Of a DNA stretch of 64,000 nucleotides, positions 1,060-38,340 are shown one piece after another; the first letter of the stretch is position 1; each line of letters starts with the position of its first letter. The DNA is taken from NCBI GenBank assembly GCA_951406725.2, contig OX597814.1, positions 88,164,001-88,228,000 of the forward strand. Direction: 5' to 3'. Origin of the DNA: Octopus vulgaris (Eukaryota). The notes under the pieces were generated by a model. The model saw only the letters and a program-made list of their open reading frames with translations, did no database searches and was not told the DNA's origin. The translations under genes and the position numbers were made by a program.

Positions 1060-1565
1060 TCAGTTGTATGTCCCCTCTGTATTCAGGCCTTGTGCCTATA
1101 ATAAAGAGAAAGGGCATCACTTACATCCACCTGGTCCCCTCTCACCAGACGGTCGACAAAAAGTGCTTTTTGGTAGCTTTGAGGGAATTCAGGAAGAGAT
1201 TTCGTCGCAAAAAGCCAGTACACCAGCACCAGGACAATGTACCTGGCCGTACTTTGATCCCGGTAACTAATTACTTGACAGAGGTGGGCATCAAAACAGT
1301 CCTGACTTTGTTTCCTGTGACTTTTGGTTGTTTCCCAAGCTGGAGGAGAACCTCGGGAACAGTCGTTTTGAAGATATTGGGGAAATGAGGAGGTTGTGAC
1401 AAGGCTCCTGTACACATCCATTTCGGAGGACAACCTTGGGTGCCTTCACGAAATAGCTGGAGCACTACAAGCAGTGCACTGAAGTCAGAGGATCGTACTT
1501 TGAAGGATATTAGTTTTGTACTTCTTTGAAATTAATAACCTCAAAATTCTGGAATGTGCTTGTAT
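1060..1565 (+). pseudogene. Decayed mariner transposase 3' fragment
   Basis: ORF 1047-1388 has KGITYIHLVPSHQTVDK...HQDNVP (mariner second-D region); C-terminal KQCT..YFEG-like remnant near 1470-1510. Confidence 0.6.
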
Positions 1566-2702
1566 AGCTTAATGCTATGCCTGGACGTATTTTAAGAACG
1601 TATTTTGTAATAAATTTCAAAAGAACATTATTTCGACGATGAGTGTTGCATGTCTTTCGAAGCCTCTGCATTTATAGATCTGCATTCAATTGTTCTTCAA
1701 GAGCTTTGATGCAAAATGAATGACTGAGTTTCTATAGAAAACGTCCGTTTTCTTTATTTGCCCATTTGTTTATTTAGATGTGTCTTGTCCATGCTTAAAC
1801 TTTGACTTTGAATTCCGCCCTAACATCTAGGACAGTGCTGACGTTACACACACACATACACACGCACACACACACACACACACACATATATATAAACACA
1901 CACACACACATCCTATGGCCAAGAGTATGCCGTGTTCAAAAACAATATTCCTAGAACTTGTAATTAGAAAACCACGGTGATCCGTCTATTTGTTTACTTA
2001 TTTCAGTTTATAACTACACGACTTTCCTACGCCTCAAAACATGCAGAGGGCCTTATAAGCTGATGGCATCACATACTCACTATTCTGCTCACACAAGCAC
2101 AGCTAATCCGGTGGAGCATCAATCAGTAAGAAACTTGGCTCCAACAACCTTAGAATAATAGCGACCAAATTTATGGTTTAGTAAATAATCAATTTTTAGA
2201 CTCCAAGAGTGCTGTAAAGCATACTTAATCTTTGGTTTGGATTCACAACTGTACTAATTCCACTTTTCTTACATTCAAAATATAAATGGAAAACGCATGA
2301 ATACTACATCGGTTCATTTCCTTTCCATCACACACATTTTGAACTCTTCGAAATCTGCAGCTATTCTAAATTAATTTTATTAAGTCGATAAATTCCTTCC
2401 CAACAGAATTTAGTTTTATTATGACAAATGTTCTGTTGCAGAAGATTTAACCATTTTTTAAAACCATTCCTGTCAATTTCAATAACACACAATGGGAGCT
2501 TTGAAGCTCGGTCTATTTCATTCACAGACTGTCGAACTATTTGGAGCTTTGCCAACGGAGTTATAGAGGTCACATATTAAGCGTTTATATGTCCGTTTAT
2601 ATAAAATGAAAATTTATTGGTTTTGTATGGCTGAAATATTAATGTTATTGAATAATGCAGTTGGCTATGCTAGTGTCAAATAGACGCACTACAGTAAATT
2701 GC

Positions 2703-2771
<69 letters not shown>

Positions 2772-3724
2772 ATACACAAAACGTAACAAACAATTGAGCT
2801 AACAGACTATACTGAGGATATTCTATCTATAAAGAAAGGTAGGTAAGAACAACATTAATTGTTTCAATGTTAGCACCATAAACTCTACCATTTATAAGCA
2901 TGAATAACATACACCCTTAATAAAACTTGAATAAAACACGCATACATATGTATTTACACACATGCATAGATTCATAAATGCATCATCTATTGCCAGACAT
3001 TCAAGTCAATAACATAACTACTCGCATTGGTAAGTATTCGTTTTCGAGTGATGCACTTAATTGACTTATACACGTAACCAGTAGGGACTAACTTTTCCGT
3101 GTGCACTCATGCGAGCGATTACGCTAGTTATTTAAAACAAACGTATTACAAAAGACCATCCAACCATGTGATATCTATTTACAATAGAAGTAATTGGACC
3201 ATTAAGAGTTAAGTACGTTGGCAACGAGCCTGTTATAAAGCCTATGGTTGAATTGGGCCGGTGATTTACCGATACCGTATTAACTCGCATGTACAACTAA
3301 TAATTTCTAAAATAGCAACAAGCTCAGAAATGTTGATATAGGAAATAACATATTGATGCCAATACGCCAAAATTTTGATTGGAACTTAATTTTTTTTTAT
3401 TCTATCCATTCCGAACGGGCAACAAATTTAACCATGACGAATGTAAATCCAGAGAGTAATTAGCTGGAACAAACACTGCATATGTCAATTGTTCTGGCTC
3501 TTTGCGATTATACATATACAAATGATGACATACAAATTATTATCGAGAATTAGACCGTTAGACAACACATACCGACAAAATTCCTTCCACACACCATTAT
3601 TATTATAAGAATAAATCTAAAAGCAAAACCAAAATCTAAAAACAAAAAAGCCTTCATTAAATGTATTCTTTAATTACCTCGGACAGAGTAGCATATTTTT
3701 GAGTGAAACTGTGGAAGTCCATAA

Positions 3725-3866
3725 TGTATGTATGTATGTATGTATGTATGTATGTATGTATGTATGTATGTATGTATCTATGTATGCATGCAATCATGCA
3801 TGCATGTATGTATGTATGTATGTATGTATGTATGTATGTATATATGTATGTATGTATGTATGTATG
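3725..3866. repeat. (TATG)n microsatellite
   Basis: Direct tetranucleotide tandem repeat; source of the spurious CMYV ORFs. Confidence 0.95.
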
Positions 3867-3914
3867 TCATTATGCAGTTTTATTTTATTTTAAGATTTCT
3901 TGCCTATAGAGAAA

Positions 3915-21639: not shown

Positions 21640-21934
21640 TAACATATAATTGCCAACCAAGTGTAGCGTCCTGTACGGAACAGTGCTACTGACGTGTATT
21701 GCCTCAAGAAGACATCTCTTCCGGCTGGCTAACGACACACATTCTGTGATCCGATTAGTATTTGCGAGGGGACGTCATCGCTCTCATCCCTGGCCTTACG
21801 TGATACACACGGACTCGAGTTTCTGAGTAGTTATCCATCCTCAGCGTATGTTAATCACCAGCTAGTGATGAAAACTCACTCCACTCGCAAAATTCTATAG
21901 GACGCCACACTTGGTTGGCAATTATATATTACGA
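21637..21934. mobile_element. Short element with about 45 bp terminal inverted repeats next to a (TA)n tract
   Basis: TCGTAACATATAATTGCCAACCAAGTGTAGCGTCCT / AGGACGCCACACTTGGTTGGCAATTATATATTACGA. Confidence 0.7.
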
Positions 21935-22065
21935 TTCCGTATTGCTACTGTTTACATCTCGCCCAGAGATTTAGTATAGCCTATATATATATACATACGT
22001 ATATATATGTATAAATACGTATGTGTATATATATATATATATATACCTACATATATATATATATG

Positions 22066-33959: not shown

Positions 33960-34830
33960 GCACTCTGGTAAACTAGAAGTTTATTTTCAGTTTGGCCGTC
34001 CTCCCAGACGCTGCTTCAATGATTTTACGCGAGCACATCGTCCATCACGCTCCCCACCCCTTATGCATGTTCTTAACTCGTCAACATTTGCCATTCCACT
34101 GTCCTGAAGCAAATTGTCCACATAGGTTAGACGTTTTCTTCTCCTGTTGCTTCTTCCTTCAACTTACTGCCATGAGACCAGTTGATATTCAGGTTCTTCT
34201 GACACTATGGTTAGCAATTTTCATTCTTCTCTGTTGCCTTTTCTCAGCCACTTTGGGTAGATCTTGATGTTGTTGCTCGTTGGCTAAATGAGCTCTCCAT
34301 GTAACATTCAGAGTAATTCTTAACAATCTTGTGTGGCAGCTGTCTATTTGTTTTTCAAGCTTTTTGAAATTGATTCTACCGTAGAGACGAACAACCAAAT
34401 TTTCAATTTACTTGCCATCTTAGAACTCCAGATTTTATGTAGTTTGTGACACACATTCCAAGCGAGTACCTTCCAGACAGCAAAGTCCTTTTCACTACTT
34501 TCCATTCAAGCACCAATATTAGTAACTTCCTCAACTTCTTTTCATGCAAAGAGGGGATTTGGTAGCTCAGGATCTTGATCGAATGTCTGATTTGCAGTCT
34601 TATCTGAGTTACAGTACAGGACAATCTTTGCAGCTTCAAGTTCTACTCTGTTGAGCACTTCCTGAGTCCGATGTATTTCTTCAGAGATAAAAACAATATC
34701 GTCTGCAAAGTCTAGATCTGTAAGTATCTTTGCTGTAACTCGTCTACTTATTCGTCTTTCCAACTTAAACACTGTTCTGACTCTTTTTCTTGTAAGGCCT
34801 TGCGCACCGCGTACCAGAACGAACATACGG
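33960..34830 (-). mobile_element. RTE-clade LINE 3' fragment
   Basis: LTDLDFADDIVFISEE; IDSCHTRLLRITLNVTWRAHLANE; decayed. Confidence 0.75.
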
Positions 34831-35217
34831 TTCAGAAACTATGTGGCAGCGCTCGATTAACCATTAAGCAAAGTAAGCACATGGTTAGGGTTTCAAGGGA
34901 AGTGGGCGGGGCACCACAGAAATAGTGAAACTGTTTGCGGTACGAACGAAATCACTTTAAACTTGCTAAAATCATATTCAAAGTGGTTTATATGGTCGGA
35001 AATATAATTTCAAAGTGATCATGGTGTCATTGAGAGGATCTTATCAAAGACTTTGTAATTAAAAAAAGGTGGAGAAGACTTTTCAAACTTAAATAAAGTG
35101 GAAGTATACAAAAATAAAGATTATTTTCCATCTTACTGTTAGTTTTATTTCATTTTCATAAATAAAAATTTATTTTATGGTTTATTATTGTTTATATTTT
35201 GAATTATATATATATAT

Positions 35218-35337
<120 letters not shown>

Positions 35338-35374
35338 TTGTAAATATAATATATGACAATTATTCGGTAGCTTT

Positions 35375-35435
35375 GATAAAACTCCGAGTTTCGAATGTCG
35401 GGGCGGAAACCCGCGCCGGCATCTCTTCAGTTATC
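35375..35435 (-). ncRNA. Type I hammerhead ribozyme (P1 left arm)
   Basis: Reverse complement GATAA-CTGAAGA-GATGCCGG(CGCGGGTTTCCGCC)CCGACATTC-GAAA-CTCGGAG-TT-TTATC; stem I GATAA/TTATC, stem III ACT/AGT, GUU cleavage triplet. Confidence 0.7.
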
Positions 35436-35767
35436 GGGCCATCGAAAAAAATGCTACGAAAATGACCGTTAAAACAAAGGGAAATTACTGTGTGATTGAC
35501 CGTTATTAAGACAAAAGAGTTATTAGAATAACCGCTAAGTAAGGGTAGGGAGTAAAGGTAAGGCAATAAAAATGTTCATAGTAGTCGCGTATGCGCGCAT
35601 ATCCGTGGTCATTCTAATACCTCTTTTGTTTTAATAACGGTCAATCACACAGTAATTTCCCTTTGTTTTAACGGTCACTTTCATAACATATTTTTCGATG
35701 GCCCGATAACTGAATAGATGAATAGATGCCGGCGTGGGTTTCCACCCCGACATCCGAAAGTCCGAGT

Positions 35768-35769
<2 letters not shown>
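35375..35769. mobile_element. Palindromic hammerhead-bearing element P1
   Basis: Arms about 35377-35535 and 35605-35769 are inverted copies with a spacer of about 70 bp; flanked by (TA)n and (CA)n. Confidence 0.8.
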
Positions 35770-35857
<88 letters not shown>

Positions 35858-35890
35858 AGGATGAAAAGGAACACACGAGTTGATATATAT

Positions 35891-36370
35891 GAAAAAATAA
35901 GTCAAAATAGAAAATGCTAAAATAATTTTATAAAGAACATTTCAGTACCGGTTTCGGTCATTTTGAGACCTTTTCAACTGTAACGATTAAATAATTAAAT
36001 TTAGAAAAATTAAAATAAATGTTTTTTTAAAGGAATATTTGTATAGTGTTCAAATATAAGTGGCATTTTCCTTGTTTATGCCTTGCTCTGTCTCTCTTGT
36101 TCACACTTGTTCGAGGTCGTTGATTCACAACGATTCACAACGACCTCGAACCCACAAGTGTGAACAAGAGAGACAGAGCAAGGCAGAAACAAGGAAAATG
36201 CCACTTATATTTGAACACTATACAAATATTCCTTTAAAAAAAACATTTCTTTTAATTTTTCTAAATTTAATTATTTAATCGTTACAGTTGAAAAGGTCTC
36301 AAAATGACTGAAACCGGTACTGAAATGTTCTTTATAAAATTATTTTAGCATTTCCTATTTTGACTTATTT

Positions 36371-36374
<4 letters not shown>
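35891..36374. mobile_element. Near-perfect palindromic element P2 (about 235 bp arms, about 15 nt loop)
   Basis: GAAAAAATAAGTCAAAATAG... / ...CTATTTTGACTTATTTTTTC; few mismatches; centre about 36132; flanked by TA repeats. Confidence 0.85.
36282..36325 (+). ncRNA. Minimal hammerhead ribozyme, U3-A8 core variant (mirror copy on minus strand at 35941-35983)
   Basis: CAG-TTGAAAA-GGTC-TCAAAAT-GAC(T/C)-GAAA-CCGG-TA-CTG; stem I CAG/CTG, stem II GGTC/GACC, palindromic stem III ACCGGT, GUA triplet. Confidence 0.6.
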
Positions 36375-36428
<54 letters not shown>

Positions 36429-36429
36429 T

Positions 36430-36626
36430 CTTTACTCTTTTACTCTTTTAATTGTTTCAGTCATTTGACTGCGGCCATGCTGGAGCACCGCCTTTAGTCG
36501 AGCAAATCGACCCCAGGACTTATTCTTTGTAAGCCCAGTACTTATTCTATCGGTCTCTTTTGCCGAACCACTAAGTGACGGGGACGTAAACACACCAGCA
36601 TCGGTTGTCAAGCAATGCTAGGGGGA

Positions 36627-36706
<80 letters not shown>

Positions 36707-36871
36707 TACGACAGGCTTCTTTCAGTTTCCGTCTACCAAATCCACTCACAAGGCATTGGTCGGCCCGGGGCTATAGCAGAAGACACTTGCCCAAGATACC
36801 ACGCAGTGGGACTGAACCCGGAACCATGTGGTTGGTTAGCAAGCTACTTACCACACAGCCACTCCTGCGCC
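36430..36871 (-). mobile_element. Family B SINE, full composite with internal microsatellite
   Basis: Minus-strand head GGCGCAGGAGTGGCTGTGTGGTAAG, TTGGGCAAGTGTCTT core, internal (TA)/(TG) tract, (GTAAAAGA)n tail. Confidence 0.85.
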
Positions 36872-36879
36872 TATATATA

Positions 36880-37090
36880 TATATTGTTAATCCAAACATG
36901 AACAAAAAGAAAACACAACGACGCGAGGACGTGGAATAAGTAGTGTTATTGGACGCTCAGTAAAGGAGAGAACGAAGGAGGATTTCACGTTTCGAGCGGA
37001 GCTCTTCATCAGAAATGTAGAGAAAGTCCAAAGAAGGGAAGATGGAGACAGAAAATCGCCAACAATACACACGCGGTCACCGCCCCCATA
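36880..37090 (-). mobile_element. Short hammerhead-bearing element in (TA)n (family shared with 44075-44310)
   Basis: GTTAATCCAAACA.GAA...ACGCGA.GACGTGGAA shared; minus-strand ATTT-CTGATGA-A-GAGC-TCC-GCTC-GAAA-CG-TG-AAAT at 36982-37016. Confidence 0.7.
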
Positions 37091-37104
37091 TATATATACA
37101 TATA

Positions 37105-37193
<89 letters not shown>

Positions 37194-37230
37194 GAATGGA
37201 GTTGAACGACGAATTAACAAAATTCCTTTA

Positions 37231-37313
37231 TTTTCGACATATGTTTCGAAGGCTGCATATTCCTAATTGCGAAGGAATAAGGAGTATATTATGCCGCTTT
37301 CTCATCAGGAAAA
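37231..37313 (-). ncRNA. Type I hammerhead ribozyme (P3 left arm, mirror copy)
   Basis: Reverse complement of the 37568-37650 motif with an intact core. Confidence 0.75.
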
Positions 37314-37450
37314 GCAAGGAACTTATGTCAACATCAAGATGCACAAAAAACTTTTAGATGACTGCTCAAACGGAGCCCATAGTGAAAATGAGTGTCGTTT
37401 GAACCCTTGAACCTTTAGAACCTTCTAGATTCTTCTACATCCAACCATTT

Positions 37451-37469
37451 TGACGTCACTCCTTATAAA
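37451..37469 (+). promoter_or_regulatory. CRE (TGACGTCA) plus TATAAA in the P3 spacer, putative Pol II promoter
   Basis: TGACGTCA at 37451-37458 and TATAAA at 37464-37469, just upstream of the right arm. Confidence 0.4.
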
Positions 37470-37567
37470 GGAATTTTTTAAAGAGATACTCATTTTCGCT
37501 ATGGGCTCCGTGTGAGCAGTCATCTAAAAGTTTTTTGTGCATCTTCATGTTGACATAAGTTCCTTGC

Positions 37568-37650
37568 TTTTCCTGATGAGAAAGCGGCATAATATACTCC
37601 TTATTCCTTCGCAATTAGGAATATACAGCCTTCGAAACATATGTCGAAAA
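37568..37650 (+). ncRNA. Type I hammerhead ribozyme (P3 right arm)
   Basis: TTTTC-CTGATGA(37573-79)-G AAAGCGGC...ACAGCCTT C-GAAA(37634-37)-CATAT-GTC(37643-45)-GAAAA; stem I extends as TTCCTT/AAGGAA beyond an internal loop; palindromic stem III ACATATGT. Confidence 0.8.
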
Positions 37651-37830
37651 TAAAGGAATTTTGTTAATTCGTCGTTCAACTCCATTCTTTCATATATTTA
37701 TATTTAAAAAAAAACATACAAATTTCCACACGAAAGCACGTAACTTCAAACGTGTCTTCTTTGATGTGAATTTGCTACCCAGGTATCGATTAACCGAATT
37801 ATCCATAACAAGATAATTCATTCAACTACT

Positions 37831-38340
<510 letters not shown>

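Follow-up and report, generated by a model that had tools for sequence, protein, structure and literature searches.

Hammerhead-bearing palindromes in TA repeats of the Octopus vulgaris genome: very probable truncated ends of protein-coding Penelope-like elements

The locus studied here lies in a 64,000-nt stretch of the Octopus vulgaris genome (contig OX597814.1; hereafter, the window), in which three palindromes (P1, P2 and P3), one single arm (A4) and seven hammerhead-like motifs occur within 2.4 kb. We wanted to know what kind of mobile element leaves such a pattern. According to the original prediction, the palindromes represent a distinct class of short, non-autonomous retroelements. Our analyses make it very probable that the cluster consists of four end pieces located in TA-repeat tracts, each truncated at its 5' side and each from a different protein-coding Penelope-like element (PLE) family, and that three of them have an inverted second copy that likely originated in a single insertion. 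The elements are new members of a known PLE insertion footprint rather than a separate class of mobile element; we regard the stubs as inactive from the moment of insertion and their hammerheads as passengers.

Much of the original description was borne out. The three fold-backs and the single arm are all present and are mutually unrelated in sequence (cross-alignment scores of 15-26), each is flanked by (TA)n/(CA)n, and none contains an ORF, the longest ATG frames in the stubs being 40-66 aa. The arms of the three palindromes were confirmed, but the outer limits of P2, of P3 and of the left arm of P1 had to be changed to those given in Table 1. The segment between P2 and A4 is an abundant, unrelated interspersed repeat, which we take to be an octopus SINE. 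A tblastn search of the window with nine parent fragments gave no match at 1e-4, and thus no PLE coding remnant accompanies the cluster.

Table 1. Features of the cluster (window positions). Clade types are assigned by motif and by-eye match to printed alignments; hammerhead motifs and cleavage sites are predictions. L numbers are genomic copies.
Feature	Position	Strand	Remarks
(TA)n target tract	35203-35336	.	
P1, head-to-head pair of Hydra-type PLE 3' ends	35342-35769	.	91% and 87% to L155; arms 35376-35533/35607-35772, 145/166 identical
P1 long (left) arm	35342-35604	-	
P1 left hammerhead motif	35375-35435	-	CUGAAGA core, long bulged helix II, palindromic helix III; predicted cleavage after U at 35380
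P1 short arm	35607-35767	+	last 38 nt missing
P1 right-arm motif, damaged	35705-35768	+	helix II duplication, broken helix III, helix I 3' strand lost
(TA)n tract	35768-35857	.	
P2, head-to-head pair of Neptune-type PLE 3' ends	35859-36376	.	96-98% to L158/L157; arms 35889-36117/36143-36376, 225/234 identical
P2 tail	35859-35888		~30 nt, left arm only
P2 minimal hammerhead	35943-35980	-	U3-A8 core; predicted cleavage after A at 35946
P2 minimal hammerhead	36285-36322	+	U3-A8 core; predicted cleavage after A at 36319
(TA)n tract	36374-36427	.	
Interspersed repeat	36425-36872	.	internal (CA)n(TA)n tract; several more window copies
(TA)n tract	36872-36883	.	
A4, single 5'-truncated 3' end of second Neptune-type PLE family	36884-37082	-	83% to L249
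A4 minimal hammerhead	36982-37016	-	G17 at 36986; predicted non-cleaving
(TA)n tract	37087-37188	.	
P3, head-to-head pair of Hydra-type PLE 3' ends	37190-37826	.	96-99% to L121; arms 37185-37396/37485-37696, 207/212 identical
P3 short arm	37190-37396	-	
P3 hammerhead motif	37231-37313	-	canonical core, long helix II; predicted cleavage after C at 37236
P3 long arm	37395-37692	+	
P3 hammerhead motif	37568-37650	+	predicted cleavage after C at 37645
P3 tail	37693-37826		~135 nt, right arm only
(TA)n tract	37834-37924	.	

The relation to PLEs that had been proposed is supported by other copies in the same genome, where each of the arms recurs as the 3' terminal repeat (pLTR) in longer elements with reverse transcriptase (RT) and GIY-YIG regions, and where the hammerhead motif is part of the parental pLTR. 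Such long copies were found for each arm, and they are 83-99% identical to the elements in the window. The RT region precedes the GIY-YIG region in all four families, although the frames are broken and none of the four contains an intact ORF among the copies examined. Pfam searches with the parent fragments detected RVT_1 (E 2.5e-5) and GIY-YIG (E 3e-4 to 0.02), all under the curated cut-offs, and 3 of the 10 fragments gave no match.

Based on their motifs and on by-eye matches to printed alignments, we assign the parents of P1 and P3 to the Hydra type and those of P2 and A4 to the Neptune type. The P1 family is the older one, with copies that are about 90% identical. Its copies L155 and L156 run through frames encoding a CxCX5C linker, GIY-YIG and CxxC; in L155, the arm continues into GIY-YIG and RT-thumb frames, and L195 holds the RT. 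The P3 family is very young (copies 97-99% identical). Four P3 copies continue for more than 1.5 kb and enter a frame that ends in GIY-YIG; a second upstream walk followed copies for more than 2 kb, into an ORF with the RT motifs RWL, DKT and YRDD plus GIY-YIG. The P3 parent contains QSDKT and RIRWL, corresponding to the DKT and RWK-like motifs of Hydra elements. In pairwise blastp, the parents of P1 and P3 share only ~36% identity. The features that they share with the Hydra clade (PMC8557442) are DKT and RW in P3, CxCX5C in P1, CxxC near the C-terminus in both, and (TA)n targets; the P3 parent differs from that clade in that an asparagine-rich insert takes the place of the CxCX5C linker. By eye, the P1 parent is close to Hydra-1_Obim of Octopus bimaculoides and has the same hammerhead layout, but its hammerhead sequence is unlike the one given for Hydra-1_oBim in that paper.

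The P2 family is also young. Its copies L158 and L157 contain the motifs GLKF, DKG, GTAM, CX4CxxC and GIY-YIG; L157 is nearly full length, and its GTAM motif reads GTAMG. In six of the 30 A4 loci (L233, L234, L239, L244, L248 and L249, after two walks), the arm lies downstream of GIY-YIG, at about 1 kb from the endonuclease end; in L249, it follows RT and GIY-YIG frames and a CA-rich 3' region of ~1 kb. The parents of P2 and A4 both have a CX2-5CxxC linker and a CCHH-type GIY-YIG, with a spacing that by eye is nearer to the Neptune than to the Nematis rows. With the Neptune clade, as presented in the supplement of PMC8557442, they share CX4CxxC with Neptune-like spacing, the CCHH-type GIY-YIG, insertion in microsatellites and, in P2, DKG. 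They were matched to alignment rows and not to a named octopus Neptune family, and A4 differs by its common G17 variant (see below). The literature searched contained no paper devoted to these octopus families, which may already be catalogued in Repbase or Dfam.

To find out how the copies of each family are organized, the genome (2.8 Gb, 227 contigs) was searched with each arm, which gave 1522 (P3), 1748 (P2), 3421 (P1) and 3937 (A4) first-look candidates. For each family, 40 were scored and the best-scoring 30 fetched; three duplicate loci were dropped and the window loci were counted. As only the best 30 of 1500-3900 candidates per family were taken, the fractions obtained are biased toward window-like copies. 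Even so, palindromes are a minority: an inverted second copy was present upstream in 12 of 29 P3, 4 of 29 P2, 13 of 29 P1 and 0 of 30 A4 loci, one A4 call having been removed as a low-complexity artefact. The end points differ at every inverted locus, and 5' ends vary continuously. None of the 40 candidates scored per junction query was a second copy of the P1, P2 or P3 junction, and the four nearest look-alikes were other junctions. Since no sampled junction recurs, the palindromes are one-off insertion products, and the possibility that the palindrome itself is the amplifying mobile unit was rejected.

The 3' ends adjoin (TA)n with n of at least 3 in 70-79% of the loci (20, 23 and 22 of 29, and 21 of 30), compared to 7% of random positions, which agrees with the predicted preference for microsatellites; target site duplications are unreadable inside (TA)n. 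The P1, P2 and P3 families each have two alternative 3' ends, set apart by a tail of ~65, ~30 and ~135 nt, respectively. Among the 87 loci of these three families, 29 are inverted, and in 27 of them the tail is present on exactly one arm (p 8e-7 against 0.5, the maximum one-arm probability if the arms were independent); when two short internal inversions are excluded, the count is 25 of 27. The P1 copy in the window has no tail on either arm, which counts against a one-sided-tail model. In L169 and L170, the P3 tail is located between an upstream pLTR and the start of the ORF, so that these copies are partial tandems of the type pLTR-tail-ORF-pLTR; none was seen in the P1, P2 and A4 loci examined.

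This architecture is already published, including the inverted 5'-truncated copy, the one-sided tail, the (TA)n bias and the opposite-strand hammerhead pairs, and the present cluster therefore carries little weight as a discovery. The EN+ PLE insertions described in PMC3846280 and by Craig et al. 2021 (PMC8557442, Fig. 2 legend) likewise have a head-to-head inverted, 5'-truncated copy with a tail on one arm, frequent 5' truncation, a hammerhead close to the 3' end and a bias for microsatellites. The octopus insertions differ from these published accounts in the length of their tails (~30, ~65 and ~135 nt versus 30-40) and in the stacking of four families in 2.4 kb. PMC8557442 lists the origin of tandem and inverted PLE insertions among the open questions; with the one-sided-tail count and young octopus families such as P3, it can be tested from genome data alone.

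How might the palindromes arise? For a Poseidon-clade element, it has been reported that the endonuclease nicks AT-rich DNA on both strands, that both are extended, and that reverse transcription starts at either of two internal sites on a tandem RNA, which bound the tail (PMC11167929). In the octopus, both nicked ends of a (TA)n target could similarly prime reverse transcription, one per RT start site. The two cDNAs would stop early and would then be joined head to head, often at short microhomologies; the outcome of such two-site priming would be a palindrome with a tail on one arm. Two-strand priming is our interpretation, being known in vitro only for the Poseidon clade, which is a different one. 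According to a rival reading with the same PLE origin, a single cDNA folds back where it meets a short palindrome or microhomology, serves as its own template, and has its end resolved by the endonuclease; self-priming has been proposed before (Arkhipova et al. 2013, PMC3846280). Several junctions indeed show short overlaps or microhomologies, and the P2 palindromes turn near one short self-complementary site, although three of the four were found by querying with that junction. In addition, rare variants are common to both arms of some loci (5/36, 20/47 and 16/173, versus 0.2-2% between loci). However, the shared variants and the junction microhomologies fit two-strand priming and fold-back alike, and the variants also fit gene conversion.

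The position of the tail is more informative. In its simple version, fold-back places the tail on the first, longer arm, whereas 9 of the 27 one-tail loci (L009, L045, L052, L056, L069, L076, L079, L084 and L087) have it on the clearly shorter arm and 11 on the longer arm; the arms are of about equal length in 6 loci, and 1 locus is unclear. A tail on exactly one arm, which is sometimes the shorter one, favours priming from both nicked strands, and we regard fold-back as rather unlikely. The mechanism in the original prediction, in which the RT acts on self-cleaved RNA before fold-back synthesis, fits poorly with these tails, with a core that is not conserved above background among copies (see below), and with the element ends, which do not coincide with the predicted cleavage site but lie downstream of it by tens of nucleotides or more. 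Two-strand priming can be extended to a joint reading, which we offer tentatively: PLE-specific twin priming at (TA)n nicks would use one RT start site each, giving a strictly one-sided tail on either arm; ribozyme cleavage would be dispensable in vivo, because the A4 subfamily with G17 has amplified widely; and the near-perfect hairpins would contribute substantially to the double-stranded RNA that is so heavily edited in octopus.

The hammerheads themselves were screened with a type I descriptor with palindromic helix III on the 58 kb of the window left after removal of microsatellites. The strict descriptor gave five matches, compared to 0.1 +/- 0.3 in 30 shuffles: one at 21844 and four in the cluster, on both arms of P2 and of P3. 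When G17 was allowed, six matches were obtained versus 0.2 in shuffles, the extra one being A4. Rfam returned weak HH9 matches on P2 alone (E 0.17 and 3.8), which came nowhere near the gathering score; matches to hairpin-type miRNA models were rejected as shape matches. Both type I descriptors missed the P1 motifs. By inspection, the left P1 motif has a complete core and fits only with a bulge in helix II; in the right motif, helix II contains a duplication of 8 nt, helix III is not palindromic, and the sequence is cut off before helix I closes. The type I fold predicted for every arm is thus present in P2 (as the U3-A8 variant), P3 and the left arm of P1, is damaged in the right arm of P1, and carries G17 in A4. 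A hammerhead with G17 would not cleave according to the NUH rule, for which reason A4 is predicted to be inactive. G17 was present in 23 of the 30 best A4 matches and U17 in 5; among copies recovered by an upstream query, G17 was present in 14 of 28 and U17 in 12.

Minimal type I hammerheads with a tiny palindromic helix III are known from metazoan PLEs (Cervera and de la Pena 2014, PMC4209133), and the U3-A8 variant is common to those and to ours. The same paper attributes opposite-strand hammerhead pairs 100-700 bp apart to truncated PLEs. Differences are the long helix II extensions of P1 and P3, and the G17 of A4, which is not among the features given where that paper describes its hammerheads. 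There, single minimal motifs did not cleave and dimers cleaved weakly. In a lizard Poseidon element, cleavage depends on the protein, and insertion in vitro can proceed without cleavage (PMC11167929).

It had been predicted that transcription of either strand would yield a ribozyme. The motifs read outward, however, and on either strand the motif therefore falls in the arm that is transcribed second, behind its own complement. In folding of the whole elements, the mean probability that the core is unpaired was 0.001-0.002 for P2 and P3 and 0.09-0.22 for P1, compared to 0.49-0.58 for single arms. If a palindrome is transcribed whole, the hammerheads are thus predicted to be buried in a long hairpin, and neither strand would give a working ribozyme. 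Selection on the core was not detected either: core divergence among copies was 12/308 (3.9%) versus 170/5250 (3.2%) in the flanks for P1 (p 0.51), and 2/261 (0.8%) versus 119/4415 (2.7%) for A4 (p 0.07). The original prediction had named a core not conserved above background as an observation that would speak against it.

These results bear on the view that the stubs are retrozyme-like, that is, distinct short non-autonomous hammerhead retroelements that move as palindromes through a PLE RT acting on self-cleaved RNA. The stubs lack an ORF, contain real hammerhead motifs and occur as thousands of short copies per family; in addition, they resemble animal non-LTR retrozymes in being non-coding and PLE-derived with a type I hammerhead, and such retrozymes have been proposed to stem from PLE pLTRs (bioRxiv 10.64898/2026.07.22.740005). 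Retrozymes, however, form head-to-tail tandem arrays, whereas the stubs are head-to-head or single: arrays of short units were present in 0 of the 87 P1-P3 loci, and 1 of the 30 A4 loci was tandem. Together with the coding parents, the continuous variation of 5' ends, the lack of a recurring junction among the sampled copies, the ends away from the cleavage site and the buried, unconserved core, this makes a retrozyme-like class very improbable, and for these loci we consider it largely refuted. An origin as MITEs, in which the arms would be the long terminal inverted repeats of a DNA transposon that targets (TA)n, is suggested by the fold-back shape and the (TA) flanks but can be dismissed, as had been anticipated, because most copies are one-armed with variable 5' ends, the arms continue into RT and GIY-YIG frames and the tail makes the two ends asymmetric. 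The likeness does matter for annotation, since stubs of this kind can pass for MITEs and raise the number of hammerheads counted, and all families but P2 are common.

Long, near-perfect double-stranded loci are unusually numerous in octopus, and heavy editing of a lizard Penelope has been reported (PMC5625713). Contigs of five presumed-RNA runs and three large unlabelled runs were aligned with the P3 arm; such contigs do not reveal RNA ends, strand or level, and that the presumed-RNA runs gave no joint of a circular RNA is no evidence that such RNA is lacking. In these contigs, A>G at position 37648 occurred in 4 of 5 presumed-RNA runs versus 0 of 3 large unlabelled runs, the type of run being guessed. 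RNA editing is not claimed, since G>A at 37655 shows a similar pattern, occurring in three presumed-RNA runs only (run type again guessed), and 2 of 47 genomic motif matches carry the G of the A>G variant.

Finally, four insertions in 2.4 kb exceed the average density in the genome. Six matches to the strict descriptor were obtained in 400 kb of arbitrary DNA (0-1 in eight shuffles), and about ten matches to three of the four families, with none to P2. Shared (TA)n targeting is the likely cause of the clustering. It explains the clustering partly: other hammerheads are no more frequent in the flanks of family copies (5 in 363 kb) than in random DNA (6 in 400 kb), and therefore chance among many such tracts plays a part. 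Two of 40 arbitrary 10-kb stretches (L277 and L278) hold two such families within ~0.6 kb.

Four independent palindromes of the family of P2, one of the palindromic 3'-end stubs of Penelope-like elements (PLEs), turn at one short self-complementary site, within a few bases (L294, L295 and L297, and window positions 36117-36143). Rare variants common to both arms number 5 in L294 and 14 in L295.

Long simple repeats are present in the 3' regions of the parents of P2 and of the single-arm stub A4, that is, of the longer copies with RT and GIY-YIG whose 3' ends match the stub arms. In the P2 parent (L157, L158) they are (CTT)n/(CAT)n repeats; in the A4 parent (L159, L160) they form a CA-rich stretch of about 1 kb. 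Therefore, microsatellite-like DNA is spread by these elements. In the P3 parent ORF (L122, L166, L180), an asparagine-rich insert is located in frame between the RT and the endonuclease, at the place expected for the cysteine linker; it is similar to the N-rich inserts described for rotifer Penelopes in PMC3846280.

Three bases past the predicted cleavage site of the P3 hammerhead, at window position 37648, A>G was present in four of the five sequencing runs guessed to be RNA and in none of the three large runs. Because G>A at position 37655 shows a like pattern, subfamily or allele effects are possible for this variant. Among A4 family copies (L091-L154), 37/58 contain G17 in the hammerhead and are predicted to be non-cleaving, and 17/58 contain U17, in a sample biased toward copies like the window's own G17 copy. 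These sequences suggest that a subfamily with a ribozyme predicted to be dead was amplified.

Additional features of the window
Feature	Position	Strand	Remarks
Likely PLE-type stub in (TA)n, fifth in window	21655-21985		hammerhead motif at 21844 (-)
Decayed LINE-type RT fragment	34500-34790	-	read by eye; directly left of the stub cluster
MITE-like element, ~75 bp, in (TA)n	37926-38001		imperfect CAG...CTG inverted ends

The likely fifth stub has an inverted terminal copy of ~35 bp and an extension of ~50 nt on one side only, and therefore resembles a MITE with short TIRs. The MITE-like element is presumably of the hAT type. One interspersed repeat of ~200 bp is present in about 20 copies, in both orientations, across positions 40-63900.
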